This document shows, one piece after another, positions 12,428 through 42,917 of a stretch of 64,000 nt of DNA. A program made the translations under genes and the position numbers. The DNA is from Candidatus Yanofskybacteria bacterium RIFCSPHIGHO2_02_FULL_43_17 (GTDB taxonomy: Bacteria; Patescibacteriota; Minisyncoccia; 2-02-FULL-40-12; GWA2-44-9). The stretch covers positions 27,494 to 91,493 of the forward strand of contig MGJU01000014.1 of the NCBI GenBank assembly GCA_001794435.1, written 5' to 3'. Below the pieces are notes generated by a model, which saw only the letters and a program-made list of their open reading frames with translations, was not told the origin of the DNA and did not search any database. Each line of letters begins with the position of its first letter. Positions within the stretch are counted from its first letter, which is position 1.

Positions 12428-12446
12428 TGATTTATGTTTAAAGTTG

Positions 12447-13037: not shown

Positions 13038-13073
13038 ATATTAAATTTTACCACGACGAGAGAAATAAGTTAT

Positions 13074-15509
13074 CTACACTACCACAACCGACGCTATGCC
13101 GTCGCCGCTTTCAACTCTCATTATCCTTACTCCCTGCGTCGCCCGGCCTAAAACAGAGATGCTTGCAACTGAAGTCCTTATCACAACTCCCTTGCGAGAA
13201 ACAGCGATAAGTTCTTTATTTTCTTCCGAGGTCATGTGAGCTGAAACCAATTCACCCGTTTTCGGTGTTATTTTTGCAGTCATTATACCGCGACCTCCGC
13301 GTTTCTGAACCTTATACGCCTTAAGGTCGGTTCTTTTTCCATAACCGTTCTTAGTAACGGCCAAAACGTGAAGGCCCTTTTCAACTCCTGACGGAACAAC
13401 GTCGGCACCGACTACTTTTTGATCCTTATCCAGCCTGATCCCTATGACACCGGCGGCACTCCTGCCCATTGGCCTTACATCTTTTTCTTTAAACCTGATA
13501 GCATTCCCGCCCGAGGTAACAAGCATCATCTGGTCGTCGCCGGAAGTTGGAATGACCCAACCCAGCTCATCGCCCGCTCTCAACTTAATAGCAAGCATTC
13601 CGTTTTTCCTGACAGCATCAAGTGAATCCATATCAACCTTCTTTATAATCCCCTTGGTTGTAGCCATAAAAAGAAACATTCTTTTCTGTCCTTTTGGTAT
13701 GGGGACCACGGCGGTGATGACATCAGTTGGCGCGACTTGGAGAAAATTCACGATGGCTTTGCCTTTCGACTGGCGAGATGACTCGGGTACTTCATATGCC
13801 TTGGTCTGGAAAACTTTTCCCGAATTCGTAAAGAATAGCAAACTGTCGTGCGTATTCGCGACGAAGAACTGCGACACGACATCTTCTTCTTTTGTAGCTA
13901 TCCCAACCAAACCTTTCCCGCCCCTCTTTTGCGACTTTAATACGTCAGGAGGTATTCTTTTTATGTATCCGCCCCTTGTAAGCATAAAGAGTGAGTCCTC
14001 TTCGGGTACCAACTCCTCCTCTCCTATCTCTTTGAGAGGAGATTTGACCACTTTTGTCCTCCTCTCGTTGGCATGTTTGTCCTTTAAAGTCAGGAGTTCT
14101 TCCTTAACGACGCCCAAGATCTTCTTCGGGCTGGCCAAAAGGTCCTCAAGATGCGCTATGAGTTCCTTCTTCTCTTTGAGTTCATCGTTGATCTTTTTCC
14201 TCTCAAGACCAGCCAGGGCCTGCAATTTCATTTCCAATATTGCGTTGGTTTGTCTGTCTGAGAACTTGAATTTCTTTATCAAATTATTGAAAGCGTCTTC
14301 TTTTGAATCGGATTTTTTAATAATGGCGATTATTTCGTCGATGTGGTCCAAGGCCTTCTTCAGACCTTCCAAAATATGCGCCCGGTCTTTAGCTTTTTGC
14401 AAATCGTACTTGGCGCGTCTCGTCACTACTTCCTTGCGATGGTCTATGAATTTCTCAAGCAATCCTTTCAGTCCCAATATTTGAGGCTGAATGCCGTCCA
14501 CCAGAGCCAGCATATTAAAATGGAACGACTTCTGAAGTTCGGTGTATTTAAAAAGCTGGTTAAGGACTTTTCTCGGGAAAGCATCCTGTTTAAGATCTAT
14601 GGCAATTCTTAAACCGTCTTTATCCGACTCATCCCGTATATCCCTGATACCTTCCATTTTTTTATCTTTAACCAGATCGGCAATATGTTTTATCAATTCA
14701 GCTTTGTTTGTCTGATAAGGAACTTCAGTAACTATTATTTGAAAACCTCCGCCTCTGGCGGATTTGCCTTCAACGATCTCTGCCTTACCACGCATTAAGA
14801 TTGGGCCGCGGCCAGTAGCATACGCATTACGAATGTCGGTCTCGTTATAAATAATGCCGCCGGTCGGAAAATCCGGCCCTTTGACGAACCGCATCAGGTC
14901 ATCCACTTTGGCATCGCCGTTATCGGCTAAGTAGACGAGGGCGTCAAGCACCTCGGAGAGATTATGGGGGGGAATATTGGTGGCCATACCAACGGCTATG
15001 CCCATGGAACCGTTGATCAGAAGGTTGGGAACTTTGCTTGGAAGAACTTTCGGCTCTTGAGTTGACGCATCATAGTTATCTTGAAAACTAACGGTGTCTT
15101 TATCAATATCTGATAATAGTTCTTCGGCTATCGGGGCCATCCGGCATTCGGTATATCTTTGAGCCGCGGCTCCGTCGCCGTCAATCGAACCCCAATTGCC
15201 GAGTCCGTCAACCAACGGATATCGTAGGGAAAAATCCTGCGCCATTCGCACAATAGAATCGTAGATCGCCATATCGCCATGCGGGTGGAAGTTACCCATG
15301 CAAAAACCGACTACCTTCGCCGACTTCTGATACTTGGCACCCGGCCTCAAGCCCATCTCGTGCATCGAATAGAGTATCCTTCTGTGAACCGGCTTCAAAC
15401 CGTCCCTGACATCGGGAAGAGCGCGGGCAACGATGACGCTCATAGCGTACTCCAAGTACGACTGCTGCATCTCTTCGGTTATTTCTCGTTGTTTGATGTT
15501 TTTATCCAT
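13074..15509 (-). CDS. gyrA: DNA gyrase subunit A
   Basis: [28 protein letters not shown]-terminal signature; 811 aa with C-terminal beta-pinwheel repeats. Confidence 0.95.
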
Positions 15510-15609
15510 CTGGTTCTAATTACAAAATTACGCATTGCGAATTACGGATTAAATTTAATTCCTCAAAAAATCCGCAATTCGCAATACGCAATAAACTAAT
15601 TGAAGTTGG

Positions 15610-15957
15610 CTATTTATGTTCCGACAACGGTAATGTGTAAACTTTTCCGTTTTCGACTTGAATTTTGTCTTGCCTGTCTCTTGTCTCTTGTTTATTGTCT
15701 CCCAACAATCCCGACACCAGTCCTTTAACTTCTCCCGCCGACTGCCAAATATAACCGAACAGCGACGGCACGGATACGTTTTCGACGGCTAACGCTTTCT
15801 CTGCATCTTCTTCCGGATTCATCATTACATAAAGATTCTTTTGAAATGAACGGAACCACACCATTCCTACCAATAAGACGGTGATAAAGACTGAGAGGCC
15901 GAACATTATCTCTCTGGTATGTTGGGGTTGTTTTTTTATATCGTCGAGAAAAGACAT
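15610..15957 (-). CDS. small membrane protein, unknown
   Basis: single TM helix, no recognisable motif. Confidence 0.4.
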   Translation of the reverse strand: MSFLDDIKKQPQHTREIMFGLSVFITVLLVGMVWFRSFQKNLYVMMNPEEDAEKALAVENVSVPSLFGYIWQSAGEVKGLVSGLLGDNKQETRDRQDKIQVENGKVYTLPLSEHK

Positions 15958-15963
15958 GTCGGT

Positions 15964-16602
15964 TTAAAAGTTAAAAACGATTAATTTCACTTCTTCCGCG
16001 GGAAGATTTTTTTTGGCAATTTTGTACTTGTCGACTTTTTCGGGAGTCAGGCCCAGTTCTTTTATGAACTTGTCGGGTCCGTCTATGTCTATCTTCAGAT
16101 CTTTAACTTTATAATGCATCGGAATGACAACTTTCGGTTCTATTTGTCCCACCACCTCAATCGCTTCTTTGTAATCGACGGTGTATCTGCCTCCTATCGG
16201 GAGCATCAGTATATCAATGTCGCCTATATCATCAAGTTGATGTTCCTCAAATTTATCCTGACCGAAATCGCCCATGTGACACATCGTCATGTCTTCTGTT
16301 TTTATGACGTATATGGTATTGAGTCCTCTTTCCTGACCCTTACTCTTATCATGATACGAGAGAATGCCTCTTACGTACATACCCATTTTTTCATATTCCC
16401 CCGGACCGTCAACTATCATGGTCGTCTGAGAATCAGCGCCTTCAGTATTGTTGTGGTCATAGTGTTTGTGAGTCACTAAAACCAGATCGTCTTTTATCCG
16501 CGGCGGCTTTAATCCTATGTCTTTAGAAAACGGGTCGATGAGAATGCTTCCTTCTTTGGCCTCGATCCTGAAACAGCTTTGTCCAAACCAGGTGATGGTC
16601 AT
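15964..16602 (-). CDS. MBL-fold metallo-hydrolase
   Basis: HKHYDHNNTEGA (HxHxDH) motif. Confidence 0.75.
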   Translation of the reverse strand: MTITWFGQSCFRIEAKEGSILIDPFSKDIGLKPPRIKDDLVLVTHKHYDHNNTEGADSQTTMIVDGPGEYEKMGMYVRGILSYHDKSKGQERGLNTIYVIKTEDMTMCHMGDFGQDKFEEHQLDDIGDIDILMLPIGGRYTVDYKEAIEVVGQIEPKVVIPMHYKVKDLKIDIDGPDKFIKELGLTPEKVDKYKIAKKNLPAEEVKLIVFNF

Positions 16603-16763
16603 ATTGAAATCGTAGCAAAAAATTAGTTCAAAATCAACTTCGACACACCTCTACTGCTCGACCTTATGCCATAATGGCTGAGGCCTGAAGCAAAAGATGG
16701 GGAGGGGTGAGGAAACTACGAGTTGCATTGTCGAAAATAATAATGTATATTCTTCACGATATG

Positions 16764-16879
16764 GAATCCCGAACGAAATAGCCCTAATGGGTTCGGGAAT
16801 CAAATTAATAATTAACCGAACAGCTTGTTTTACAGATATAACTTATGTGTATAACTGTGAAACAGCTACTTCGTACGGG
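16764..16879 (+). repeat. 116-bp leader element (copy A) with conserved ends abutting the rpsA ATG
   Basis: 5' end AATCCCGAACGAAATAGCCCT and 3' end CAGCTACTTCGTACGGG immediately before ATG; paralogous copy at 55081-55196 before yidD. Confidence 0.6.
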
Positions 16880-17962
16880 ATGGAACTAGCGCAAAGCGAT
16901 ATAAAATCCATGAAAGAACTCCTGGCGAAGGAGGAATTTTATTTACCGAAGCCCGGAACTATACTGCAAGGCCAGATGATAAATGTCTCGAAGAACAACG
17001 TGATAGTCGACCTCGGTCAGGCCGGTATTGGCATAGTTTATCCGGGGGAATTCTACGATAATCCCGAAAGAATGCGCGCTCTTAAGCCGGGCGACATGGT
17101 TTCCGCTATGCTTATCGAGCTGGAGAACGAAGAGGGCTACCGAGAACTTTCTTTGAGGTCAGCCCAGATGACAACCGCTTGGCAGGATATTAAAGAAAAA
17201 ATGGACAAGGAAGAAATAGTAACCACCACCGTCATCAATATCAACAAAGGCGGTCTCATTGTTGAAGTAAGCGGAGTTCAAGGCTTCCTGCCCCTGTCCC
17301 AGCTCTCCCCCGAACACTACCCTAAAGTAGAGGGCGGCGACACGACCAGAATCGTCCAAGCGCTTCAAAAATTCAAAGGTCAGGAATTAATGGTAAAGAT
17401 AATAGGTTTCTCGGAAGCCGAAAATAAACTCATCGTTTCGGAAAAAGCGATACTAGAAGACCTTGCCAAAGAAGAGCTGAAAAAACTGACCGTCGGAGAT
17501 ATGGCGGAGGGTGAGATAACCGAAGTAACCGATTTTGGCGCTTTCGTAAGGCTAAGCGACAACCTTGACGCCCTGATACATTCTTCAGAGATTGACTGGA
17601 AGTTTATTGAAGACCCGCGAGAAGTTCTCCACATCGGAGACAAAATAAAAGCCAAGATAATAAATTTGGACGGCGGCAGAGTTTCGCTCTCCCTGAAAGC
17701 TCTGAAACCCGATCCATGGGAAACGGTTGAAGAAAAGTTCCAGGTCGGCCAGAAGATCAAAGGCAAAGTCATCAAGATCCGATCGAGCGGCGCATTCGTA
17801 GAATTATCAGACGACATCGTTGGATTTCTACCAGCAGAAGAAGTAATAAAAGACGGCAAACCTGCCCGAACGACTGACGTCGTTCAGTCAGGCGGAGAAT
17901 ACGATCTGGCCATCGTCAGTATAGACGCCAAAGATCACAAAATAGTTCTCACACTTGAGTAG
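16880..17962 (+). CDS. rpsA: 30S ribosomal protein S1
   Basis: four S1 domains (GQMINVSKNNVIVDLG, GIVQRKEG-like, EVTDFGAFVRL, GKVIKIRSSGAFVEL); start chosen at MELAQS, upstream ORF extension unlikely. Confidence 0.85.
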   Translation: MELAQSDIKSMKELLAKEEFYLPKPGTILQGQMINVSKNNVIVDLGQAGIGIVYPGEFYDNPERMRALKPGDMVSAMLIELENEEGYRELSLRSAQMTTAWQDIKEKMDKEEIVTTTVININKGGLIVEVSGVQGFLPLSQLSPEHYPKVEGGDTTRIVQALQKFKGQELMVKIIGFSEAENKLIVSEKAILEDLAKEELKKLTVGDMAEGEITEVTDFGAFVRLSDNLDALIHSSEIDWKFIEDPREVLHIGDKIKAKIINLDGGRVSLSLKALKPDPWETVEEKFQVGQKIKGKVIKIRSSGAFVELSDDIVGFLPAEEVIKDGKPARTTDVVQSGGEYDLAIVSIDAKDHKIVLTLE

Positions 17963-18037
17963 TCGCTCAAATATTATCCTCACTCTCAACCTTCGCTTCA
18001 AAATAATTCTTCTTCAACACACCTCTTGCCACTCGAA

Positions 18038-18243
18038 GCCATCCCCATTTTCATCACGGATTTCTCATAGAGCAATCGCGATTCGCTCCTAATTTTTCTG
18101 ACCGCCCGAAGCCACTTCCGTCAGGCCATGCGGTCCCGCCAAGGCGGGACCGTTCCTGACACCTTCGGCTCGGTTTCTCAGAAAAACAGCGTCGCTCATC
18201 TGCAACTGCTGTCTATTCGTCATAGTGATTCAAATAGGGATGG
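18038..18243. ncRNA. structured element copy 1 (candidate ncRNA, identity unknown)
   Basis: ~85% identical core to 56945-57147; central GGTCCCGCCAAGGCGGGACC hairpin; closing stem differs in sequence from copy 2 but keeps pairing (covariation). Confidence 0.45.
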
Positions 18244-18538
18244 CTCTTCGCTGGCTGGTTGACAAGTTAAGCTAAAACCTCCAGGGAGCAAGACCACCAG
18301 ACAATTTTTCTAGCGTTTACGCTTCTTTACTACAAATCCGAGATATTTGAGAGATAATGCGGTCCGCATTATGACCAAATATCGAAGGATTTGTTAACGA
18401 AGCGGAAGGCGTAAAAAATTGTCTGGCGGTCTCGCGACTGACCATAGCACACACCCCCCGACCTTGACTGAAGTTATATTTTACTATATACTATATTCAT
18501 CGTTTCGTTCCTTAACCAAGACAAGAAAGGACTGGGAA

Positions 18539-19246
18539 GTGGCGACAAAAAGAGCAGCCACCGTCGCAACCCTCGGGCCGGCAGTCCGGCTCGTAGTGTT
18601 CAAGTTTTTGATGAGAAGTGAGCTGGTGCCGGACTACATCCCCCGGTTGCCTAGCAACCGTTCCAGCGTTGCGCCGGCATATAACGGTACGCAGGTTTTG
18701 CCGTCCACGCCCGACGTGTGGCTGGCTGACCTGCGAGCCGGATTGCTCAACACCAAGGGCGACTACGCGTTCGTCGGCGCGAGAGTCGCCGATGAGAGAA
18801 CAAATACAAAGAGAAAGGTCAGGAGGGGAGGACTCGTTGAGATTGTCGAAGTCAAGATCAGCGATGTGCGATTCACATTCTGTCGCCGCCGGCATCTGAC
18901 CGACGATCCGCCTCCTCACGAGAACTTTGTGGAGAGGTTCAGTCAACTGGTTAACACCTTCGTTGACTTCACCAAGTCAAACCTCTGGATGACAGAGGCA
19001 TATCTCAATCCGTACCTGAACAAAGACGGCACTACCGGCAAAGGCAGCGTGCTGATGATTGACTGCGCCGGACGGAAATCGGCTGTCAATCCGGATGGTA
19101 CTCCGATCATGGTCTTCGAAGGTGGGCGAGAAAAATCGTCCGCTCCCGGTATGATCGGTCAGGGCATCGGCCCAAAGATTTCGATCCTGAACAAGGCCAG
19201 CGAATTGAAACTCGTCGGCAAGAATGTTCAGTTGATTACCAGATAA
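18539..19246 (+). CDS. hypothetical protein on GC-rich island 1
   Basis: GC ~60% ORF with GTG start after AAAGGA; no recognisable motif; followed by terminator. Confidence 0.5.
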   Translation: MATKRAATVATLGPAVRLVVFKFLMRSELVPDYIPRLPSNRSSVAPAYNGTQVLPSTPDVWLADLRAGLLNTKGDYAFVGARVADERTNTKRKVRRGGLVEIVEVKISDVRFTFCRRRHLTDDPPPHENFVERFSQLVNTFVDFTKSNLWMTEAYLNPYLNKDGTTGKGSVLMIDCAGRKSAVNPDGTPIMVFEGGREKSSAPGMIGQGIGPKISILNKASELKLVGKNVQLITR

Positions 19247-19279
19247 ATATTCGAGCGGATTATGTCCGCCGGCCCCTCA

Positions 19280-19315
19280 CCTTTCAGTAGAAAGGTGAGG
19301 GGCTTTAAAATTTTA
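19280..19315 (+). terminator. intrinsic terminator
   Basis: GCCCCTCACCTTTCAGTAGAAAGGTGAGGGGC followed by TTT. Confidence 0.7.
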
Positions 19316-19356
19316 GGAGGTTGACCCAGCTCTTGGGAAGCTTATATTATGCTCTT

Positions 19357-19626
19357 ATGTATTTTGTGTATGTATTATCTCTAAGCAACGGCCAGATTTA
19401 CATTGGTTTTACCAAAGACCTTAAGAAAAGAATTGAAGAGCATAATAACGGCAAGGTTTTTACTACTAGCAAGTATCTACCAATCAAACTTGTATACTAT
19501 GAATGCTATTTATCTAGAGAAGATGCCAAGATTAGAGAAACCATGATTAAAAAATTTGGTAGCACATACTCCCATCTTAAGAAAAGAATTTATTACTCTA
19601 TTAAAGCTTCCCAAGGGCGGGGTTGA
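19357..19626 (+). CDS. GIY-YIG domain nuclease (stand-alone, ~89 aa)
   Basis: YVLSLSNGQIYIGFTKDLKKRIEEHN GIY-YIG core; low GC unlike flanks. Confidence 0.75.
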   Translation: MYFVYVLSLSNGQIYIGFTKDLKKRIEEHNNGKVFTTSKYLPIKLVYYECYLSREDAKIRETMIKKFGSTYSHLKKRIYYSIKASQGRG

Positions 19627-19753
19627 CCCCGCTCTTGAAGAGAGGTTGCCTGTGGCAGAACCATCCCATTTATACGTTCTACTGATAAACACAGAATGAG
19701 TTGTTCAAAACTATTTTATTAAAAACATCCTCTCTTCAAGAGCGGGGTTGACA
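19611..19753. repeat. inverted-repeat element of the TTCAAGGGCGGGG-TTGAC family (arms 19611-19645 and 19729-19753, ~80-bp AT-rich spacer)
   Basis: arms CCAAGGGCGGGGTTGACCCCGCTCTTGAAGAGAGG / CCTCTCTTCAAGAGCGGGGTTGACA; right arm ends in a -35 hexamer. Confidence 0.7.
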
Positions 19754-19775
19754 AAATTTGTGAGAAGAGTATAAT
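19748..19775 (+). promoter_or_regulatory. sigma70-type promoter (TTGACA-16-TATAAT)
   Basis: perfect consensus hexamers with 16-bp spacer. Confidence 0.7.
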
Positions 19776-19967
19776 ACATTTAGAACATTAAATACTACCG
19801 GAGCAGAAAAGAGGCGACTTGAAGCCAATCTAGAAATGTCGAAATTATAGATACATCGATATTTTGGCCCCAAATCCCCTCTTTTCTGCAACCCGCTCCG
19901 TCACGAGCGGCGGAGCCAGGGAGGGGTTCGTCAACGACGTCAACGCCCACTGGGCAAAGGAGGCCAC

Positions 19968-20774
19968 ATGGCCACGAAGAAGGTTCGGAAGATGAAGAAG
20001 GACGAGATCCCGGTCACAGCCGGAGAACTCTCGGACATCGAGAAGCAAGACCTGGCGGCGACAGCGCCCGCCGACGACAAGGGCGACGGCGAAGCGAGCG
20101 ATCGCCTGCCGTACCACACGTTCGAGCCGGAAGTCTTCCAGCGCTGGACCCGACACGAGAACGGCCTCCACTTGGTCCCGAAGTACCGCTGGGACATGGT
20201 CGCACGGCTGAACGGCGGCCCGCTCTCGGTGGCCAACACCGAGCGGATCGTTCGGGTCGACCCGGCGCTGGGTCGGGCGACGTGCGGATTCCTCGGGCAT
20301 GGGAAGGAGTTCGTCGCCTATATGGTGGCGTTCATCCTGAACAAGCCGGGGCAGGAGGGTCAGCTGATGACTCGTGACAAGTACGTCACAACGGACAACC
20401 CCGAGGGGGTTGTCTACATGGGCTGCGTCGTCCGCGTCAAGGACGAGAACAACCACGTGGTTCCTCTCACGTGCTGCCCCGAGCACGTGGAAGCGGCCCA
20501 GAACGCCGTCGAGCTGGCCTCGGCCCGTCGCGACAAGGACGGAAAGATCGTCGAGCGCGGCTTCCGTCCGCCGGCCCAGTCGATGGGCCAAGCCCTCATC
20601 GACATCCAGGCCATTGTGACCAAGGCCGAACAGCGCCGCGACGAGACCCAGAAGGCCGTCGAGGCCTACGGTGGCAAGCGGCGAGAGTTCGGTGGGAGTC
20701 CCCACATGGCAACCAGCGGCCGCCAGGGCCGCGAGCGCGACCCGCGCGAGCGGAGCATCGGGAACCGCGGCTAA
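19968..20774 (+). CDS. hypothetical protein on GC-rich island 2
   Basis: AAAGGAGG RBS then ATG; GC ~62%; Cys/His cluster CGFLGHG...CCPEH; no known domain recognised. Confidence 0.5.
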   Translation: MATKKVRKMKKDEIPVTAGELSDIEKQDLAATAPADDKGDGEASDRLPYHTFEPEVFQRWTRHENGLHLVPKYRWDMVARLNGGPLSVANTERIVRVDPALGRATCGFLGHGKEFVAYMVAFILNKPGQEGQLMTRDKYVTTDNPEGVVYMGCVVRVKDENNHVVPLTCCPEHVEAAQNAVELASARRDKDGKIVERGFRPPAQSMGQALIDIQAIVTKAEQRRDETQKAVEAYGGKRREFGGSPHMATSGRQGRERDPRERSIGNRG

Positions 20775-20794
20775 CCCCGCGTTCCCGAGCACGC

Positions 20795-20850
20795 AACCCG
20801 GAAGGAGGGTGGAGGCACAACCTCCTTCCCTTCTTCCGGGTCGTTTTAAT
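20795..20850 (+). terminator. intrinsic terminator
   Basis: CCCGGAAGGAGGGTGGAGGCACAACCTCCTTCCCTTCTTCCGGG then TCGTTTT. Confidence 0.6.
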
Positions 20851-21132
20851 ATTTACCCGAGCGCAACGAAGTGAGCACGGTTGTAAATATTAACCCCGCA
20901 CTAATTTTGCCGACTACTCTGATAAGAATATTGAGCTAAGGACTACTTATTTAACACTCGCAAAGCGCGAGGGCCGAATAGGCCCACCCCTTATGGGCGC
21001 AGCACTTTGCCATAATAAAATCACAAAATTATTGCTGGGGTAATAAGTATTTACTAATGAAATTTTAAAACAAAGATTTTATTAGCTAGTACTTATACAA
21101 TCGGGAAGAGAACGGGAAGGGAAGGAGGCTAA

Positions 21133-22599
21133 GTGAAGACCACGAGGAGTTGGTACCGCCAGCTTGGCGAGTACCGGACGAACAAAGCTGGAAAGAAAAT
21201 TAGAGGCGTCATTGGCACCACGATGCATTTGTTCCGCATTTGCGGAAAGAATATCATCATTGAATGCGGCATCGGCTTTGACAGGAACGGTGAGTTTCAG
21301 GCCCAGTACGTACCCGATGGCAACTGGCTTATCGGAACTCATATTGATTTGATCATCCTCACCCACAAGCACCTGGATCATTCGGGGGCAATTCCCCGTC
21401 TTGTGTGGCATCACCCGGAAGCGCTGGTGTTGATGTCGGCCAAATGTTTTGACGGCACAGTGATAGCCGTTGAAGATTCTTTGAAGATCTGGCGCAACGA
21501 GGCGAATAACGCCGAGCGGAATGGTTTGCCCGTTCCGGAGCCGATCTTCACAGAAGAAATGGCTGAAGCGTTTTTCAATAACCCCAACTTGAGGGTGTTC
21601 AATCCTCCTTACTGGCTTGATCCGCAGGAAGACCTTCGCGGTCAGTGGCCGGGATGGGAAATTGGATTCTACGGTGCCGGTCACGATACCGGCGCAGTAT
21701 CTGTCTACATGATCCGACCGGATGGTAAGTATCTCTATCTGACCGGCGATATTGCCAGCCATGACGGAGAGAACGCCCGCGGTGTTCTTCTGCCGCCTGA
21801 CGACTTCCTTGGCGACTTCTTTGACCGTCCCGGAACGATGGTCACCGAAGCGACCAACGGCGGCCGCCGGATGGAAAAGCCGCGCAGTCAACTGGATGAA
21901 GAGCTCAACCGATTTATCAAGTCGGTTGATGCAAAAGGGGGCATTCTCCTGTGCGCCGAATTCGCGGGCACCAAAAGCGGCAACATGATGGTCAAGCTGA
22001 ATAATCTTGGCTACAAAGTTGTCGTTGACGGACTTGCCCGCCGGCATATCCGGGTTGAGGTTCCGGATGTTGACCAGAGGATCAGGGACGGCCGAGTCGT
22101 GTTCATTGAAGAACGCGACCAAGAGCTCGCGTGGAAACAGCGGGCCGACTACGCCGCCGGCGTTCACGGCTTTGTGTCCATAATCGCCGCGTCGGGTTCT
22201 ATGGATCAGGGCTTTGCCGCATCGGCATACGGGCCCGTGATCCTTGAGGGTGAGAAAAACGCTGTTGTCTTCACAAGCCATATCTTTGATGACTCCACCA
22301 CGCAACGACTGCTCAATATCAAGCGTGGTCGGACGATTAAGATGAAAAAGTTCGTCAACGGACGGCTCGAGCCGATTCGAGTCAATGTCCGTTGTGAAGT
22401 TAGACATTTCGGCTACTCGTCGCATGATTATCAGGACGGGTTAGTCGAGCGAGTCCGGCTCGCAAGACCGGAGGAGACGCTCATTGTCCACCACTGCCCG
22501 GGCAAGGCAACGTTTGACGCCTTTGCCGAACGAGTGAATTCCCTGCCCCCTCCCCCGAAAACAATCTGGGGACTCAATGGCAGAAAGATATTTATTTAA
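21133..22599 (+). CDS. MBL-fold hydrolase, beta-CASP-like putative nuclease (GC-rich island 2)
   Basis: THKHLDHSG HxHxDH motif, later GAGHDTGAV and YSSHD motifs; AGGAGG RBS then GTG start. Confidence 0.6.
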   Translation: MKTTRSWYRQLGEYRTNKAGKKIRGVIGTTMHLFRICGKNIIIECGIGFDRNGEFQAQYVPDGNWLIGTHIDLIILTHKHLDHSGAIPRLVWHHPEALVLMSAKCFDGTVIAVEDSLKIWRNEANNAERNGLPVPEPIFTEEMAEAFFNNPNLRVFNPPYWLDPQEDLRGQWPGWEIGFYGAGHDTGAVSVYMIRPDGKYLYLTGDIASHDGENARGVLLPPDDFLGDFFDRPGTMVTEATNGGRRMEKPRSQLDEELNRFIKSVDAKGGILLCAEFAGTKSGNMMVKLNNLGYKVVVDGLARRHIRVEVPDVDQRIRDGRVVFIEERDQELAWKQRADYAAGVHGFVSIIAASGSMDQGFAASAYGPVILEGEKNAVVFTSHIFDDSTTQRLLNIKRGRTIKMKKFVNGRLEPIRVNVRCEVRHFGYSSHDYQDGLVERVRLARPEETLIVHHCPGKATFDAFAERVNSLPPPPKTIWGLNGRKIFI

Positions 22600-22618
22600 C
22601 GGCATTTGCCGCAAACCA

Positions 22619-22644
22619 CCCCCGACCGCAAGGTCGGGGGTTTT
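22619..22644 (+). terminator. intrinsic terminator
   Basis: CCCCCGACCGCAAGGTCGGGGG then TTTT. Confidence 0.7.
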
Positions 22645-22647
22645 AAC

Positions 22648-22778
22648 TTGACCCCGCCCTTGAAGTCAGAATCTAAAGATTTTTTCTTGATCATGTTGCT
22701 ATTTATTAAATAGTCATAATTTGTTTGAAGAAAATAGTATTTGCTGGAAGCAATCTGACTTCAAGGGCGGGGTTGACC
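22648..22778. repeat. inverted-repeat element of the TTCAAGGGCGGGG-TTGAC family (arms 22648-22670 and 22754-22778)
   Basis: TTGACCCCGCCCTTGAAGTCAGA ... TCTGACTTCAAGGGCGGGGTTGACC; right arm gives TTGACC-17-TGTAAT promoter. Confidence 0.7.
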
Positions 22779-22823
22779 AACAAATCAATTTATGTAATAA
22801 TACTTTCAAGGAGGGCCGAGCTA

Positions 22824-23693
22824 ATGGCCAGATGGGGAAAACCCAAAACAGTTGACTGGAGAGGAGTACCGTCTTCTCCGACGTCATTTTGTATCTTTCC
22901 AATTAGAGACGCGGCATTCTCGCCGGAATTGAATATTTGGCTGGTTTATAATCATGCCGATAAAGGCAGAAAAAACCCGTTGGCTCAACTTTTAGGATTC
23001 GATCCCCAACAACAAGGGGGTGGTAGAAAAAAGGGCAAGCCGGCCGCTTACGGAATGCCCGGAGGCGGACTCAATCCGGAATGGCTTGAGACGGCAGAAG
23101 GTGCTGCCGTCAGAGAAGGCAGTAACGAAAGCGGGGTAAAGGTCATCCGGGCCCGTTTAATTCCTGTTCCGGGGGAAAAGAACAAGGCCCTGATATTAAA
23201 CAAGAAGACCGGCGAACGGACTCGTCCGGAGATAATGTATGCGGATGGACAACAGGTTCACATTGAACTAATGCCGAACGAGAAACTTCTTCTAAATCCG
23301 ATGAACTACTACCTCGCCGAAGTTGATTGGTTCAACTCAAAGGTCAGAGAATTTCTTCTCAACCTTAAGAATAACCTTATTGCGGAAGGCGCCTGCACCG
23401 CAGAAGATATCGCTCGCGAAGGAATCAGTATAAATACCCTCACCCGAGAAGAGCTTCTCGCGCTTGGAGTGGATGAGGAGGAAGTGGGTAAGATAAGCGA
23501 CCCCGAAGAAGTGTGTGAAATTGGCGGATTCGCTCTTCTGCCGGTAAGCTTGCTCCGCGATATGTGGGAGAGCAAGCGGTTCTACTTGAACCCCGAAGAA
23601 GACCGGGAAAATCCTTTGGATCCGACTACGTATGTGTACTACAGCCACGTAAAGCGAATCCTGGAAGGCCTAGACCTAATGGGCGTTGCCTGA
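22824..23693 (+). CDS. hypothetical protein
   Basis: AAGGAGG RBS then ATG at 22824 (MARWGKP); upstream ORF extension overlaps the promoter element; terminator at 23716-23745. Confidence 0.5.
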   Translation: MARWGKPKTVDWRGVPSSPTSFCIFPIRDAAFSPELNIWLVYNHADKGRKNPLAQLLGFDPQQQGGGRKKGKPAAYGMPGGGLNPEWLETAEGAAVREGSNESGVKVIRARLIPVPGEKNKALILNKKTGERTRPEIMYADGQQVHIELMPNEKLLLNPMNYYLAEVDWFNSKVREFLLNLKNNLIAEGACTAEDIAREGISINTLTREELLALGVDEEEVGKISDPEEVCEIGGFALLPVSLLRDMWESKRFYLNPEEDRENPLDPTTYVYYSHVKRILEGLDLMGVA

Positions 23694-23778
23694 CCCTGTC
23701 GTTTTTTTTCAAAAATAAGGAGCACGCAACGCTCCTTCTTTTTATAACTAAGCCCGTTGTGTTAAAATAAAAAATCAA

Positions 23779-25587
23779 ATGAAAACTATTCTAAAATATA
23801 TTCTTATCGTATTTGTATCGCTATTTGTTCTGGCGGCTTTGGTGTCTTTGTTTGAATCTCCCGAAAAATCAGTCATTCCCCTTTCAGAACTGGTGAATAA
23901 GATAAACCGAGGAGAAGTGGAGAGCGTGACTCTCAAAGAAAATTTGCTTGAGATAAAAACTGTCAGCGGCGAGTTGTTGGAAACAAAGAAAGAAACATCC
24001 GTATCCGCTTTCGAGACACTCGCTAATCTTGGCGCCGAGAAAGACAAGCTATCGGCAATACGAGTTGAGGTCAAAGATGCCAGCGGATTTGCGGTAATTC
24101 TCAGATCGGTATTACCCATAGTTCTGCCGTTTCTTCTGATACTTTTTATCTTTTGGTTTATGTTCAGCAAAGCCCAGCAAGGTTCAATGCAGGCATTGTC
24201 CTTCGGAAAAACAAAGGCGCGGCTGGCAAACATGATCGGCAAAAGAAAAGTTATGTTCAAGGATGTGGCCGGACTGACAGAAGCGAAGGAAGAGATATCG
24301 GAAGTGGTTGAATTTTTGAAAGATCCCCAGAAATTCCACAAACTCGGCGCAAGAATACCGCGAGGCATTATGCTTGTCGGTTCTCCGGGAACCGGAAAAA
24401 CTCTCCTAGCCAAAGCCGTCGCCAATGAAGCCGATGTTCCCTTTTATTTCGTTTCGGGTTCGGAATTCGTAGAAATGTTCGTTGGCGTGGGCGCAAACAG
24501 GGTAAGAGACACCTTTGAGCTGGCCAAGAAAACATCGCCTTCGATCATCTTCGTAGATGAGATAGACGCCGTAGGCCGTCACAGAGGCGCGGGTCTTGGC
24601 GGAGGCCACGACGAAAGAGAGCAGACATTGAATCAAATACTGGTTGAGATGGATGGTTTTGATACCAACGACGCCGTGATTGTAATGGCCGCGACAAACA
24701 GACCCGATATTCTTGACCCGGCCCTTTTAAGACCGGGTCGTTTTGACAGGAGAATAATCTTGGATGAGCCGTCAATGAGAGACCGCGAAGACATATTAAA
24801 GATCCACTCGCTGGGCAAACCAGTATCACCAAGCGTAAACCTTAAAATAGTTGCGGAAAGAACACCGGGATTTTCCGGAGCCGATCTGGCAAACTTAGCC
24901 AACGAAGCAGCGATACTGGCGGCAAGAAAGGGTCGAGCTCAGATAAATCAGGACGACTTCTTTCAAGCAATAGAAAAGGTCATTCTCGGTCCGGAGAGAC
25001 GAAGCCATATACTTTCAAAAAAGGAAAAAGAGATAACCGCTTATCATGAGGCCGGGCACGCCTTAGTTGCCGTATCGATTCCCCACTCCGATCCGGTACA
25101 CAAGGTCTCTATTATATCCCGGGGACGAGCGGGCGGATACACTTTGAAGTTGCCAAGCGAGGACAAACACATGAGATCTAAAGCAGAATTTGAATCGGAG
25201 CTGGCTGTGCTTCTCGGCGGCTATGCCGCGGAGAAAGCCATATTCAAAGACACAACTACGGGAGCAACCAACGACCTAAGAGTAGCTTCCGATCTTGCCA
25301 GAAAGATGGTAACCCAATTCGGTATGTCGGAAAAATTGGGACCGATAACCTACGGCGAGAAAGACGAGCTGGTGTTTCTTGGCAAAGAGATGGGACACAC
25401 CAAAAATTACTCCGAAACAATCGCCTACCAAATAGACAACGAGGTTAAAAAACTTGTCTCAAAAGGTCTGGCAACCGCTAAAAAAGTACTCACTCAAAAA
25501 ATAGGTGCTCTCCACAAAATCGCTAAAGAACTCCTGACCAAAGAAACTCTCGAACAAAAAGAATTCTATTCTCTGGTCAGAGGGTAA
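23779..25587 (+). CDS. ftsH: ATP-dependent zinc metalloprotease FtsH
   Basis: [15 protein letters not shown] Walker [11 protein letters not shown] Walker [10 protein letters not shown] zinc site, N-terminal TM. Confidence 0.95.
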
Positions 25588-25635: not shown

Positions 25636-26304
25636 ATGGCACGAGTTAAAGACAGACGTCTAGCAATTAAGTTGCGGGAGCAAGGCAAAAGTTGGACTGA
25701 GATAAGAAGCGTACTTACTGTAAGTAAGGACACTTTATCTCGTTGGTTAAAAGACGCTTGCCTCACAGAAGAACAGAGACAGAAAATAGTCCTCGAAGGA
25801 AAAACTAGGCGGATAGAAAACTATATTCTGTCTACCAAAGCAAGAAGAAAAAGAATTGATGAAACGTACCTTCAAAATAAAGCCCGGGAGTTTGGCAAAG
25901 TAAACAAGCGAGACTTTCTTGTGGCGGGGTTGTTTTTATATTTAGGTGAGGGGGCCAAGTCAACTAGGTCACGCATACAAATTACCAATAGTGATCCCTC
26001 GATTATTCAATTTTCTATCTACTGGCTAACAAAAATACTAAAAATTCCTTATCGAAAAATAAAAGTTCAACTGCACTTATATACAGATATGGCTATTGAG
26101 AGAGAAATTGATTTTTGGCAAAAAATTACTATGCTAAATAGAGATCAGTTCATTAAACCCTATATAAAGAGGACATCTTCTTTACGAATTGATCACCCAA
26201 GTTTCGGTCACGGAACTTGCTCGATATATTATCATAATGCGAAAATAAAAGACGAAATTATGGCAGGAATAAAGGTTATAATGAATTCAGCAACGCGCCT
26301 GTAG
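25636..26304 (+). CDS. LAGLIDADG-type homing endonuclease-like protein with N-terminal HTH
   Basis: LAGLFLYLGEGAK single LAGLIDADG motif; N-terminal resolvase-like HTH; immediately upstream of tRNA pair. Confidence 0.55.
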   Translation: MARVKDRRLAIKLREQGKSWTEIRSVLTVSKDTLSRWLKDACLTEEQRQKIVLEGKTRRIENYILSTKARRKRIDETYLQNKAREFGKVNKRDFLVAGLFLYLGEGAKSTRSRIQITNSDPSIIQFSIYWLTKILKIPYRKIKVQLHLYTDMAIEREIDFWQKITMLNRDQFIKPYIKRTSSLRIDHPSFGHGTCSIYYHNAKIKDEIMAGIKVIMNSATRL

Positions 26305-32866: not shown

Positions 32867-32993
32867 AAGAGAAAATATACCACAAGAAATTTTAAGCGCC
32901 AAATTTGTTGATGAGGGGCGGGATAACTGTCCTGTTTTTAATAACCAAAACCCCGCACGGAGGCACTGTCGGGGTTCGGATAAAATTGTCTAT

Positions 32994-42744: not shown

Positions 42745-42917
42745 GCTGGCTTACAACTTACGACTTACAACCTACAACTTTTTGTTGTTGGTAATTAGTA
42801 GTTGGTCGTTGATTAAAGAAGAAGCCCGCCACTCAGCGGACTTATCAGTATGTTTAAATGATATCAAATTTTTAAAAAAGCGTCAACCCCTCGTCTCTTA
42901 TCCACAAATTTTACTTT

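Follow-up and report, generated by a model that had tools for sequence, protein, structure and literature searches.

What would make a few adjoining genes differ so sharply in base composition from the DNA around them? The window analyzed here, a 64-kb stretch of a Candidatus Yanofskybacteria genome with a GC content of 44.5%, holds such genes between a gene for an S1-domain protein and ftsH. An initial annotation took them for one acquired block, which could be what is left of a phage or plasmid, or else a module for defence or anti-defence. Are these genes newcomers, or have they been inherited in place? If the latter, what keeps their composition so distinct, and what might their products do?

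Composition and coding content

16697-17962, + strand: S1-domain protein (rpsA-like), the kept left flank of the block; normal GC3 (0.495)
18539-19246, + strand: ORF235, 235 aa, GTG start, lineage restricted; GC 0.552, GC3 0.669
19968-20774, + strand: ORF268, the "slot" gene, 268 aa, no family match; GC 0.662, GC3 0.866
21133-22599, + strand: beta-CASP metallo-beta-lactamase nuclease of the CPSF73/aCPSF1 type, 488 aa, starting at GTG; GC 0.541, GC3 0.628
22824-23693, + strand: ORF289, a divergent member of the Nudix family, extended at the C terminus by ~150 aa; GC3 0.52, near normal
23779-25587, + strand: ftsH (Pfam AAA and Peptidase_M41), the kept right flank; normal composition, GC3 0.479

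In a 300-nt sliding window, GC is 0.59 at 18500-18800, 0.62-0.70 at 19850-20900, and 0.51-0.59 at 21200-22550, with a dip to 0.37 over a GIY-YIG gene; when all 64 kb are divided into 1-kb bins, 20001-21000 is the sole outlier (GC 0.637). The window has 56 ORFs that are 100 aa or longer (mean GC3 0.455, standard deviation 0.07), and among them GC3 exceeds 0.6 only at the ORF235, ORF268, and beta-CASP loci. ORF268 uses AAG for 17 of 17 Lys codons (31% AAG in the bulk genes of the window), CGN for 25 of 25 Arg codons with no AGA/AGG (62% AGR in bulk genes), and ATA for 0 of 9 Ile codons (47% in bulk genes). Given that AGA is favored for Arg by both the ribosomal protein L19 gene and the bulk genes, the bias of ORF268 is not ordinary expression bias. 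Sliding GC, GC3, and codon counts all bear out the anomaly in composition and codon usage first described. The picture of two ~60% GC islands in a ~40% background stands as to the islands; the background is ~44%, however, and only ORF268 reaches 60% or more, the other two genes lying at 54 to 55%. Bimodality in GC across the genome, which the initial annotation had also named as contrary to transfer, is not seen over the 64 kb of this genome that the GC3 outlier count and the composition comparison cover; further GC3 outliers may lie elsewhere in it.

The 488-aa protein, proposed from the outset to be a beta-CASP/MBL nuclease, is one by several measures: it matches Pfam Lactamase_B and RMMBL, its family retains every catalytic motif (invariants H78, H80, D82, H83, H184, D206, E239, H431, and H454), and the family profile matches archaeal/eukaryotic CPSF, Cas14, and IntS11 over its full length (E 1e-30 to 1e-24), with NCBIfam matches to aCPSF1 and Cas14 below threshold. 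ORF289 appears, from its sequence, to belong to a divergent Nudix family; this fourth block gene is absent from the initial annotation. Of 27 cluster representatives of its family, 24 match Pfam NUDIX (best E 3.7e-14), the Nudix box invariants being G77, G81, G82, E98, E102, and G104. The ORF289 of the window itself falls under the Pfam threshold (16.9 versus 21.1 bits), and its best PDB profile match is Bacillus subtilis RppH (4jzu; E 6e-5), in the Nudix box only.

ORF235 starts at the GTG at 18539, and its orthologues likewise open with MA(K)T..TLGP; it has no family in Pfam, PHROG, NCBIfam, or PADLOC, and its confidently predicted structure has no detectable fold relative. The N terminus of ORF268 is basic and is followed by an Ala/acidic linker, a central domain that evolves fast, a long helix, and a tail rich in Arg and Gly; the Cys/His cluster noticed earlier is indeed present in the central domain and conserved in part (alignments A10 and A14). 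ORF268 has no match in Pfam or PDB and only 4 detectable homologues among 5.8 billion proteins searched, and its AlphaFold2 model is unusable (pLDDT 41); the coding frame is backed by a GC3 > GC1 > GC2 ordering and by divergence at position 3.

Gene order between the S1 gene and ftsH

The order gyrA–h115–MBL_B3–S1–ORF235–slot–beta-CASP–ORF289–ftsH is present in the relatives L007, L009, L011, and L014 to L018, and 24 metagenome loci have the same gyrA-to-ftsH order too, with local inversion in a few. This gyrA-to-ftsH order recurs in ~15 nonredundant loci from Yanofskybacteria, Terrybacteria, and relatives, and all recovered relatives have the four-gene block of ORF235, the ORF268 slot, beta-CASP, and ORF289 at the site bounded by rpsA (S1) and ftsH. 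The S1 protein (Pfam S1 domains matched on the identical L001 protein) has 84 to 85% amino acid identity with the L007, L009, and L015 proteins, and FtsH has 86 to 89% with those of close relatives. At synonymous sites, the GC3-rich genes have diverged about as much as their flanking genes. For ORF268 and its L009 orthologue, identity at four-fold sites is 0.56 versus a random expectation of ~0.35, so the divergence of ORF268 is as old as that of its flanks.

These observations argue strongly against acquisition. The ORFs are lineage-conserved genes at the same S1–ftsH site, a pattern that the initial annotation had itself named as contrary to its proposal; the GC3 excess is kept in the orthologues; neither an integrase nor an island border was detected around the block; and IMG/VR, PHROGs, and PADLOC returned no match to the block and no phage, plasmid, or defence signal. 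Thus, we are highly confident that this is a conserved, vertically inherited block rather than a recent island.

What, then, of the insertions in and beside the block?

18037-18245 and 18288-18435, no strand: two long, strain-specific, hairpin-forming insertions in the S1–ORF235 spacer (inverted repeats I4 and I6; RNA fold z = -8.8)
19321-19627, + strand: MITE-like element with the GIY-YIG gene (called gene 19333-19626); GC 0.33 (gene, 0.333)
19623-19752, no strand: empty MITE-like element with inverted repeats CCCCGCTCTTGAAGAGAGG / CCTCTCTTCAAGAGCGGGG (I2) and TTGAC at 19623-27 and 19748-52
22648-22777, no strand: second empty element of the MITE-like kind, flanked by direct TTGAC repeats (I5)

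The GIY-YIG product is a catalytic domain alone of ~97 aa (PF01541, E 2.4e-13), and its element has terminal inverted repeats at 19326-19343 and 19604-19622 (I3) and a direct TTGAC repeat on either side (19321-19325 and 19623-19627; D1). The element is absent from the ORF235–ORF268 junction of L009, L015, and L007; in L009 and L015, the junction is intact and reads terminator-GGGGC/TTGACA-promoter, which agrees with the original view of the cassette as a later interruption. L016 has a homologue of the GIY-YIG gene next to a tRNA gene, and the inverted repeats there are similar. The MITE-like repeat motif occurs in 9 copies in the window versus 0.21 expected, and a TTGAC or TTTAC duplication flanks each copy in the family alignment. 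The right TTGAC of the first empty element serves the ORF268 promoter as its −35 box, and the right end of the second supplies a putative promoter-like site for ORF289 (TTGACC-N17-AATAAT). The S1–ORF235 spacer is only ~110 nt in L009, and the 18037-18245 insertion is found again at 56945-57157. Both the GIY-YIG gene and the hairpin repeats came in later, as MITE-like insertions specific to this strain, and their target was the TTGAC that makes up the −35 box of ORF268.

Transcripts and the persistence of the GC excess

18464-18492, + strand: putative promoter-like site of ORF235, TTGACT-N17-TATACT, 10/12 consensus matches
19255-19303, + strand: ORF235 terminator, two hairpins, GCGGATTATGTCCGC and GCCCCTCACCTTTC…GAAAGGTGAGGGGC, then a T-rich run (inverted repeat I9)
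19748-19775, + strand: ORF268 promoter, TTGACA-N16-TATAAT, 12/12; no other site in the region is perfect by consensus scan
19783-19967, + strand: conserved, structured 5' leader of ORF268, fold z = -5.4
20796-20841, + strand: ORF268 terminator, long GC-rich stem, then a T-run (inverted repeat I15)
20846-21115, no strand: AT-rich untranscribed spacer between ORF268 and beta-CASP, GC 0.39
22618-22641, + strand: intrinsic terminator of the beta-CASP gene, 10-bp stem with 8 G-C pairs, then TTTT

As first described, each of the three GC-rich ORFs ends in a canonical terminator (hairpin and T-run at 19272-19303, 20796-20841, and 22618-22641). The strong AGGAGG-type ribosome-binding sites ascribed to all three are found at ORF268 (AAAGGAGG-N5-ATG) and beta-CASP (GGAAGGAGG-N4-GTG), but ORF235 has a weaker AAGGA. 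The ORF235 terminator arrangement (GCGGAC..GTCCGC plus GCCCCG..CGGGGC) occurs also in L009 and L015; the ORF268 terminator is kept as well, and L015 and L014 carry compensatory changes in it (alignment A11); and the TTGAC…GAGTATAAT promoter arrangement is kept in orthologous loci. The leader, which matches no Rfam family, contains P1, a long helix whose tip varies (GCAGAAAAGAGG / CCTCTTTTCTGC); 10 of its 17 pairs show compensatory changes across 12 loci. Beyond P1 lie short hairpins, a hairpin directly 5' of the Shine-Dalgarno sequence, and a GGCC-ACAU-GGCC hairpin that covers the start codon; the one next to the Shine-Dalgarno sequence folds in most of 14 loci, and its stem sequence differs among them. 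We read the perfect promoter, structured leader, and long terminator as sequence signs that ORF268 is strongly expressed and regulated.

How old is the GC excess, and where does it end? Across the ~15 nonredundant loci, nearly all of them GC3 rich at the slot, slot gene GC3 is 0.58-0.88 versus 0.36-0.54 in gyrA, S1, ftsH, and MBL, and it is usually raised in the beta-CASP gene and ORF235 as well. When four-fold sites of conserved residues are compared, the window shares an identity of 0.47-0.57 with L009 and of 0.26-0.33 with L016, L018, L011, and L017, the latter close to the 0.27 expected at random. Terminator parts have a GC of 0.55-0.68, but the spacers beyond them, in 9 loci, have 0.26-0.39, like background intergenic DNA (0.39). 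Gene order and GC3 excess are both kept across lineages with saturated synonymous sites, and the excess ends with the transcripts; the composition is therefore an inherited, actively maintained feature of the block genes rather than the trace of a recent transfer. The AT richness of the spacers may simply reflect promoters held there.

Local RNA structure, scored against synonymous-codon shuffles, gives z values of -4.0 for ORF268, -4.25 for ORF235, -6.9 for beta-CASP, and -3.7 for ORF289, and of -3.0 to -4.3 for four orthologous slot genes; 30 control genes have a mean of -1.0 (standard deviation, 1.5), two reaching ~-3.6 to -4.7, and such negative values may be inflated since the shuffling evens out GC heterogeneity within genes. 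We think it probable that selection acting on the transcript keeps GC high: mRNAs that are GC rich and structured to an unusual degree would be favored for stability, for escape from an AU-preferring nuclease, or for autoregulation. Biased gene conversion could add to the excess (PMC4450053). ORF268 and the beta-CASP gene evolve much faster than their flanks, and their allele classes are incongruent in close relatives (beta-CASP groups the window with L007 against L009 and L015; ORF268 groups the window with L009), which points to recombination of the kind to which gene conversion is linked.

A possible role in RNA processing

Could the four genes act together? We tentatively posit an RNA decay module built on the Nudix and beta-CASP proteins, a proposal we hold to be somewhat less probable than its negation. 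In this model, the block would serve RNA 5'-end-dependent processing or decay: ORF289 would deprotect RNA 5' ends in the manner of RppH, after which the CPSF73-type nuclease would cleave or degrade the deprotected RNA. ORF268, being strongly promoted, leader controlled, basic tailed, and fast evolving, might be an RNA-binding or adaptor partner, and ORF235 an additional partner with a new fold. Each of the four genes has its own promoter-like site and its own terminator, so operon structure lends no support to a shared function. Furthermore, the fast evolution and incongruent allele classes of ORF268 and beta-CASP fit loci that are in conflict or recombine better than they fit housekeeping RNA decay.

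Taken as a whole, a vertical four-gene block with maintained GC and an RNA-processing role is the best explanation we can offer, at slightly better than even confidence. The block spans Candidatus Yanofskybacteria and neighboring Paceibacteria-type lineages, which are ultra-small bacteria, and its genes have kept a foreign-looking, GC-rich codon usage for much longer than would be expected under neutral evolution.

A conserved, vertically inherited block between S1 and ftsH

Parts of the stretch between the S1 (rpsA-like) gene and ftsH differ sharply in composition from the rest of the window, which has a GC content of 44.5%. Measured in a 300-nt sliding window, GC peaks at 0.59 at 18500-18800, at 0.62-0.70 at 19850-20900, and at 0.51-0.59 at 21200-22550, with a dip to 0.37 across 19250-19850; 20001-21000 (GC 0.637) is the single outlier among the 1-kb bins of the 64 kb. 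The anomaly is strongest at the third codon position, as the GC at those positions (GC3) illustrates.

Genes of the block and of its flanks, with GC3
18539-19246, ORF235, GTG start, GC3 0.669
19968-20774, ORF268, GC3 0.866
21133-22599, beta-CASP gene (488 aa), GTG start, GC3 0.628
22824-23693, ORF289 (Nudix family), GC3 0.52
Flanking genes S1, gyrA, and ftsH, GC3 0.48-0.51

Among the 56 window ORFs of at least 100 aa (mean GC3 0.455, sd 0.07), values above 0.6 are limited to ORF235, ORF268, and the beta-CASP gene, and thus the genome is not bimodal in GC, at least across these 64 kb. Codon choice in ORF268 follows suit: all 17 lysines are encoded by AAG (31% in bulk genes), all 25 arginines by CGN and none by AGA or AGG (AGR accounts for 62% in bulk genes and for 7 of 8 arginines in the ribosomal protein L19 gene), and isoleucine never by ATA (47% in bulk genes). 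ORF268 reads as coding in the + frame, with GC3 > GC1 > GC2, position 3 the most diverged, and a ribosome-binding site, AAAGGAGG; a longer antisense ORF at 19845-20792 was rejected as a chance product of the GC-rich stretch. Behind each GC-rich gene lies a T-run-terminated hairpin (19272-19303, 20796-20841, and 22618-22641). The initial annotation, made from the sequence alone, was thus correct in describing GC-rich segments with deviant codon usage and a terminator at the end of each of the three ORFs.

Its proposal that the segments form an acquired block did not survive comparison with related loci. The window proteins are identical to hypothetical proteins of Candidatus Yanofskybacteria metagenome-assembled genomes, and an assembly artifact is excluded because the same contig was assembled from 11 samples. 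Wherever a beta-CASP homologue sits on a long contig, one gene order is found: gyrA, a 115-aa ORF, an MBL_B3 protein gene, S1, ORF235, the slot gene (that is, the gene at the ORF268 position, between ORF235 and beta-CASP), beta-CASP, ORF289, and ftsH. This order is kept in the related loci L007 (Yanofskybacteria, GCA_016185505.1) and L009/L010; in L011/L012, but without ORF235; in all six GTDB species representatives that carry the beta-CASP family (three Yanofskybacteria, one "Patescibacteria group," one Terrybacteria, and one contig labeled Saccharibacteria); and in 24 metagenome loci, a few of which carry the segment from ORF235 through the slot gene to beta-CASP in the opposite orientation to the flanks. 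In the inverted loci (L027, L030, L036, and L041), the segment still adjoins S1/gyrA and ftsH/ORF289. Conservation of this kind is what the initial annotation itself had named as evidence against transfer.

The compositional anomaly recurs with the genes. Across ~15 nonredundant loci, the slot gene has a GC3 of 0.58-0.88 versus 0.36-0.54 for gyrA, S1, ftsH, and MBL of the same locus, and the excess is positive in every locus with the slot upstream of beta-CASP, typically by +0.3 to +0.4; Terrybacteria differ in that their GC-rich gene (GC3 0.79) is found on the downstream side of the nuclease. GC3 of beta-CASP and ORF235 is usually raised by 0.05-0.24 in related loci, and that of ORF289 is not raised. 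How old is this arrangement? At conserved residues, four-fold-site identity between the window and loci L016, L018, L011, and L017 is 0.26-0.33; these sites are saturated, because random expectation is 0.27. Identity to L009 is 0.47-0.57, and the same-class ORF268 alleles of the window and L009 are 0.56 identical at four-fold sites (random expectation, ~0.35), a relative divergence about the same as that of the flanking genes. The slot genes of the deeper, saturated lineages nonetheless still have a GC3 of 0.69-0.84. A transferred gene would have drifted to host composition long ago, and so GC3 must be held up by an ongoing force. In total, these observations and the spacer composition described below show that the block is conserved and vertically inherited and that its GC-rich composition is maintained and bounded by transcripts.

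Like an acquired genomic island, the block has a sharp local deviation in GC and codon usage; unlike one, it is not patchy but occupies the same site, with the same deviation, in all relatives recovered, and it has been diverging for as long as the flanks. No empty site between rpsA and ftsH was seen in any relative recovered; the block genes are present there throughout. There is no integrase among the window ORFs, and the block is bordered by S1 and ftsH, with neither a tRNA gene nor a direct repeat marking its ends (the closest tRNA gene lies at 26295); the GIY-YIG and MITE-like elements are internal to the block and strain specific. The idea of a phage remnant fared no better: profile scans of IMG/VR with beta-CASP and ORF235 found no viral relatives, ORF235 and ORF268 have no family in Pfam, PHROGs, NCBIfam, or PADLOC, and no copy of the block outside its syntenic context was found in genome, metagenome, or viral collections. 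Literature searches returned no paper describing the block or a GC anomaly in Yanofskybacteria.

The GIY-YIG gene is, as first proposed, a later interruption: in L009 and L015, the junction is uninterrupted. This later event says nothing about the origin of the GC-rich genes. The gene lies in one of a set of MITE-like elements of ~125 nt with terminal inverted repeats CCCCGCYCTTGAAR / YTTCAAGRGCGGGG; the motif CTTCAAGRGCGGGGT occurs in 9 copies in the window versus 0.21 expected.

MITE-like copies in the window
19321-19752, two copies in tandem, of which 19321-19627 holds the GIY-YIG gene between its repeats and 19623-19752 is empty
22648-22777, one copy
42913-42995, one copy
54366-54493, one copy
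45071-45085, a single arm

A pentamer is repeated directly on either side of each element (TTGAC for three copies, TTTAC for the fourth); from its sequence, it looks like a target-site duplication of a −35-like sequence. The last TTGAC of the tandem pair is the −35 box of the ORF268 promoter, and element right ends give −35 hexamers to the downstream ORF268 and ORF289. The encoded protein (~97 aa) matches PF01541 (E 2.4e-13, residues 13-78) and comprises the catalytic domain only. The label of homing endonuclease therefore holds in part: the GIY-YIG catalytic domain is there, but there is no separate DNA-binding domain (TIGR01453, 20.8 bits versus 56), and the gene sits between TTGAC-flanked inverted repeats rather than inside an intron or free-standing in a phage. 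At 12575-12885 of L016, a GIY-YIG gene 52% identical to that of the window is bounded by inverted repeats CCCCTCACTTGGAAAGGAT / ATCCTTTCCAAGTGAGGGG and abuts the 5' end of a tRNA gene, with GGGGCGGTTAGC repeated on both sides; the cassette therefore appears mobile in other lineages too. The locus thus yields a MITE-like family that apparently targets −35 boxes and includes one copy with a minimal GIY-YIG nuclease gene.

Other elements of the window deserve mention in their own right. A hairpin, CCCCTCACC…GGTGAGGGG, follows ORF235 in the window (19272-19303) and is inserted after the slot stop codon in L007 (~6205-6240) and L019; perhaps it is a small, mobile hairpin of terminator type. A structured element of ~200 nt occurs twice (18037-18245 and 56945-57157), with an exact 34-nt core shared by the copies (18127-18160 and 57036-57069) and arms that differ yet stay complementary (GAAGC/GCTTC versus GGGGT/ACCCC), the outer stems both ending TCAC…GTGA. 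Rfam has no match for it, and no other locus fetched contains it; a small RNA gene and a palindromic mobile element are both conceivable. Separately, the S1-ORF235 spacer (17963-18538; fold z = -8.8; ~110 nt in L009) contains a long hairpin at 18288-18435 with 22-nt arms that are 91% complementary and 104 nt apart. Directly upstream of tRNA-Ile(TAT), a low-GC (0.37) gene at 25636-26304 encodes 222 aa with an HTH_23 domain, has weak relatives at other positions in L007 and L011, and may be another mobile gene. The ORFs at 31001-35909 (minus strand) and 9294-11084 are large, with high position-2 GC (0.52-0.56), and the two at 31001-35909 contain long imperfect tandem repeats of the GTTGGT type (31967-32131, 33603-33806, and 34939-35033); these ORFs probably encode repetitive surface proteins.

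The proteins of the block and what they may do

The 488-aa protein had been read as an MBL/beta-CASP nuclease-like enzyme, and its motifs and family matches agree. It matches Pfam Lactamase_B (E 1e-7) and RMMBL PF07521 (24 bits; cut-off, 21.6), PF10996 Beta-Casp is on record for many of its homologues, and a 28-member alignment shows MBL motifs 1 to 4, including HxHxDH (H78, H80, D82, H83, H184, and D206), and beta-CASP motifs A (D/E), B (H), and C (H) (E239, H431, and H454) to be invariant. Its homologues form a small family of ~40 members with 35-79% identity, found only in Patescibacteria; below these come RNases of the generic beta-CASP kind (23-25%). Searches with the family profile gave full-length matches to archaeal CPSF, CPSF73, Cas14, and IntS11 (E about 1e-30 to 1e-24) and a match to the bacterial CPSF-like RNase TTHA0252 (E 1e-19); the alignment of this profile to RNase J in the PDB is limited to the first ~80 residues. 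Scores against named families fall far below their cut-offs: 80.2 bits versus 580.2 for the aCPSF1 equivalog (TIGR03675), 20 versus 400 (TIGR00649) and 17 versus 820 (NF047419) for RNase J, and 60.8 versus 800 for Cas14 (NF045584). With its motifs intact and its CPSF-type profile matches running the full length, the protein is predicted to be an active-looking CPSF73-type nuclease that has no KH domains and belongs to a separate family. That is, its MBL and beta-CASP core aligns from end to end, with all motifs, to CPSF73, IntS11, aCPSF1/FttA, and TTHA0252, but it lacks the N-terminal KH domains of aCPSF1/FttA (the match begins at about residue 185 of the archaeal proteins), and at ~25% identity it stands as a family separate from the CPSF73/aCPSF1 group. 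Cas14 of type VII CRISPR-Cas (PDB 8yhd) is similar to about the same degree over the catalytic core; however, the window has no array-like tandem repeats and no other cas genes, and the neighbors of the nuclease are ORF268 and the Nudix protein.

ORF289 is assigned to the Nudix family by its relatives. Among 27 family representatives, 24 match Pfam NUDIX PF00293 (best E 3.7e-14), and G77, G81, G82, E98, E102, and G104 of the Nudix box are invariant. The window protein itself scores below threshold (16.9 bits; cut-off, 21.1): judged against GX5EX7REUXEEXGU within a Nudix fold, its box has Asn at the first Glu of the EE pair and a spacing off by two residues. The best solved relative of the family profile is Bacillus subtilis RppH (4jzu; E 6e-5, Nudix box only). 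In B. subtilis, the Nudix RNA pyrophosphohydrolase RppH and the beta-CASP enzyme RNase J act in 5'-end-dependent mRNA decay, and by analogy we infer that the Nudix and beta-CASP pairing of the block may parallel that system. The parallel lies in the pairing of a Nudix enzyme with an MBL/beta-CASP ribonuclease and in the best match of the ORF289 profile. The differences are that the block nuclease is of the CPSF73/aCPSF1 type rather than RNase J, that the Nudix protein has an extra C-terminal region of ~150 aa, and that the genes of these two predicted enzymes are adjacent and travel with two orphan genes. Thus, the CPSF73-type nuclease and the Nudix enzyme are of known kinds; what is novel is a conserved block that joins them to two orphans.

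The first orphan, ORF235, has 33 homologues, all in this lineage. Its AlphaFold2 model is confident (pLDDT 87, pTM 0.83), and a Foldseek search of BFVD found no fold relatives. For the second, ORF268, only 4 homologues are detectable among 5.8 billion proteins. Slot proteins share an architecture of basic N-terminus, Ala/acidic linker, variable core, long helix, and Arg/Gly-rich tail, with at least four types of core. The Cys/His cluster noted earlier in the 268-aa protein is present (C…H…CC.EH in the window; CxxC…H…C in one core type), but its conservation is partial, extending to three of the at least four core types. A structure model of ORF268 from a 4-sequence alignment reached a pLDDT of 41 and was not used for fold searching. 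The basic Arg/Gly tail of ORF268, its possible zinc site, and its signals for strong expression make it a plausible RNA-binding or adaptor subunit, and ORF235 would be a partner in the proposed RNA-processing block.

ORF235 and ORF289 evolve only moderately fast. Among the window, L007, L009, and L015, core proteins are 80-95% identical; the beta-CASP proteins of these four loci fall into two classes, {window, L007} at 79% and {L009, L015} at 87%, with 54-59% identity between classes. For ORF268 the classes are {window, L009} at 76% and {L007, L014} at 60%, with L015 apart. The groupings differ; the two genes thus change quickly and show reassortment of their allele classes, which does not fit a housekeeping role well.

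How might these pieces fit together? We speculate that selection on transcripts keeps the GC-rich, structured synonymous composition across an order-level or deeper radiation; that the Nudix protein and the CPSF73-type beta-CASP RNase form a system that its own mRNAs have to evade or that regulates them; that ORF268 is an autoregulated RNA-binding subunit with a leader mimicking the duplex of Shine-Dalgarno sequence and 16S 3' tail; and that ORF235 has a previously unseen fold. Taken jointly, this reading is tentative, and we would put low confidence in its holding as a whole.

Fast evolution and reassortment also lead us to keep open a reading of the block as a conflict system, despite the lack of PADLOC, PHROG, viral, or CRISPR signal. 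Here the block would be a module under diversifying selection at a fixed locus, serving defense, anti-defense, or action on the host of these episymbiotic or parasitic bacteria, with the nuclease and Nudix enzyme as effectors and the hypervariable ORF268 as a specificity or decoy component. The scarcity of ORF268 homologues, the multiplicity of its central-domain types, the beta-CASP classes so far apart amid well-conserved core proteins, and the reassortment of the two would all fit, as would the about equal scores of the nuclease against Cas14 and CPSF73. Parasitism on methanogenic archaea has been reported for members of Ca. Yanofskyibacteriaceae (PMC10936435, PMC9600506), which favors such a reading. 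Several observations pull the other way: searches with the block proteins gave no meaningful PADLOC match (best E 0.028, to a type I specificity subunit), there is no PHROG family, no CRISPR array in the window, and no relative on viral contigs, and no signal peptides are evident in the sequences as read. Defense islands are usually patchy, whereas this position between core genes is strictly kept in very small genomes of at least two candidate phyla-level groups. The moderate pace of ORF235 and ORF289 is likewise unexpected under conflict, and the GC3 excess is not accounted for by it alone. The defense or anti-defense role raised in the initial annotation was thus not borne out, and we regard the conflict reading as possible but doubtful.

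Forces on synonymous composition

Because GC3 is kept past synonymous saturation, some gene-specific force must hold the synonymous composition. Does that force act on the transcript or on the region? Leader, coding sequence, and terminator are all rich in GC (0.55-0.68 in the terminator parts). From the slot terminator to the beta-CASP ribosome-binding site, the untranscribed spacer has a GC content of 0.26-0.39 in nine loci, which is the level of intergenic DNA in the background (0.39), with the caveat that such spacers must hold AT-rich promoters. RNA structure was measured as summed local folds of 120 nt against synonymous-codon shuffles, which remove within-gene GC heterogeneity; on this measure, z is -4.0 for ORF268, -4.25 for ORF235, -6.9 for beta-CASP, -3.7 for ORF289, and -3.0 to -4.3 for four orthologous slot genes, versus a mean of -1.0 (sd 1.5, minimum -4.7) for 30 control genes, two of which are also low. 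Taken together, the spacer composition and the extra RNA structure favor selection on RNA over a regional neutral process. GC-rich, structured mRNAs could shield the block transcripts from an AU-preferring nuclease or could tune regulation.

Could the excess instead be a neutral by-product? GC-biased gene conversion at a long-lived recombination hotspot centered on ORF268 is a live rival because exactly these genes show recombination: alleles are reassorted and mosaic in the GC-rich genes themselves, GC3 is graded around ORF268 (ORF235, 0.67; ORF268, 0.87; beta-CASP, 0.63; ORF289, 0.52), and the near-identical leader and terminator around the variable ORF268 could act as recombination anchors. 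Across bacteria, the GC content of genes is reported to be positively related to evidence of recombination (PMC4450053), and the raised GC3 of the recombining block genes resembles that pattern, but the block excess is very large, concerns one to three genes only, and is absent from the untranscribed spacers. Those spacers, lying between the GC-rich genes and as AT-rich as background, are hard to reconcile with a regional process; moreover, the shift of arginine codons from AGR to CGN, the uniform AAG for lysine, and RNA structure beyond that of synonymous shuffles suggest constraint at the level of the sequence. Our impression is also that a difference of +0.3 to +0.4 in the GC3 of one gene is far larger than the effects reported for bacterial biased gene conversion. 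A neutral hotspot is thus unlikely to be the explanation. One candidate piece of hotspot evidence was dropped: L004 (ERZ27254752 k141_1231047) is identical to window 11133-24164 up to 23059, inside ORF289, and ~80% identical from there to the contig end, and this switch could be a recombination breakpoint between co-occurring strains or equally an assembly chimera.

Still less probable, to the point of being very unlikely, is descent from a GC-rich donor, either by a single ancient transfer into the common ancestor with adjustment to host composition incomplete or by repeated allele replacement from an unseen GC-rich pool (phage, plasmid, or another lineage). The codon usage of ORF268 does resemble that of an organism of ~65% GC, the family is confined to a narrow set of lineages, and the distribution of alleles is incongruent. 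Slow adjustment, however, cannot explain slot GC3 values that persist at fully saturated four-fold sites, and repeated replacement sits poorly with same-class alleles as diverged at those sites as the flanking genes. Nor did any collection, genomic, metagenomic, or viral, contain a copy off the syntenic site, and the 5.8 billion proteins included no GC-rich donor homologue, the next-best beta-CASP matches being the generic ones. Selection on the transcripts is the reading that we carry forward.

The ORF268 leader and the meaning of the locus

Upstream of ORF268 are two regulatory features.

Promoter of ORF268, TTGACA-N16-TATAAT, a perfect consensus
19783-19967, 5' leader of ORF268, ~185 nt, fold z = -5.4

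The leader recurs in 12-14 loci (besides the window, L007, L009, L015, L016, L018, L019, L027, L029, L033, L036, and L039) with the conserved start AGAACATTAAT. It forms a long helix, P1, of 17 pairs, 10 with compensatory changes and with tips variable in length, followed by a short variable hairpin and then by a hairpin immediately 5' of the Shine-Dalgarno sequence. Judged from per-sequence folds rather than from a consensus structure of the alignment, this last hairpin folds in most of 14 loci, with differing stem sequences. In Rfam 15, the leader and the hairpin elements have no family: only tRNAs reach the gathering score, and a permissive scan added only generic hairpin (miRNA precursor) matches far below threshold. 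Motif searches for further leader copies in the window returned only a terminator palindrome at 57315-57337. We consider the leader a candidate for a new cis-regulatory RNA. It resembles the autoregulatory leaders of ribosomal-protein and RNA-binding-protein genes in being a structured, conserved leader of the 150-220-nt class before a basic-protein gene and in having a hairpin beside the Shine-Dalgarno sequence, but it has no Rfam match and, within the window, occurs at this locus only.

At the other end of the gene, the stop-codon region and long terminator stem are near-identical in the window, L007, and L009 despite diverged synonymous sites, and the stem carries compensatory changes in L015 and L014. 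A perfect 13-nt pairing between the 3' arm of this terminator and the beta-CASP ribosome-binding site occurs in no other locus and was set aside as incidental. Just upstream of that ribosome-binding site (window ~21093-21110), most loci, among them L007, L009, L011, L014, L016, L019, L027, and L029, have a motif, (G)CGAGTTCTTATACAA, part of which matches, as reverse complement, the TAGAACATTAA at the start of the leader of ORF268; in L007, L009, and L015, ORF235 is preceded by a related GTTAGTTCGTTAACCCC. Such a motif might mark transcription starts in the block or act as its shared operator.

The P1 helix offers a lead on what the leader might imitate, although only a lead: its 5' strand resembles an extended Shine-Dalgarno sequence, and its 3' strand, AUCCCCUCUUUUCU, agrees at 12 of 14 bases with the 16S 3' end AUCACCUCCUUUCU, which is the textbook sequence, the organism's own 16S gene lying outside the window. 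Together with the position next to rpsA, Lys/Arg-rich termini like the tails of ribosomal proteins, and the structured, conserved leader, this match might suggest that the lineage-specific ORF268 protein is associated with the ribosome or the Shine-Dalgarno helix and is autoregulated by its leader, and that the block serves ribosome function or maturation rather than general RNA decay; that is highly improbable, since the core of ORF268 is hypervariable whereas ribosomal proteins evolve slowly, type 2 leaders match the 16S tail less well, polypyrimidine-polypurine helices can mimic the Shine-Dalgarno/anti-Shine-Dalgarno pair by chance, and ORF268 has no structural or sequence relative among ribosomal proteins.

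Compositional islands are routinely read as horizontal transfer, and this syntenic, vertically inherited block is a counter-example. The surprising part is evolutionary: a "foreign" codon usage is kept by descent, with a slot GC3 of up to 0.88, on a background of 0.35-0.5, after synonymous saturation. The locus therefore offers a compact natural test of selection on mRNA versus biased gene conversion in bacteria. To our knowledge, RNA metabolism in Patescibacteria is essentially unstudied, and the block gives these ultrasmall, host-dependent bacteria a lineage-specific set in which a predicted CPSF73-type nuclease and a divergent Nudix enzyme are joined by a basic protein that is hypervariable and by another for which no fold relative is known.
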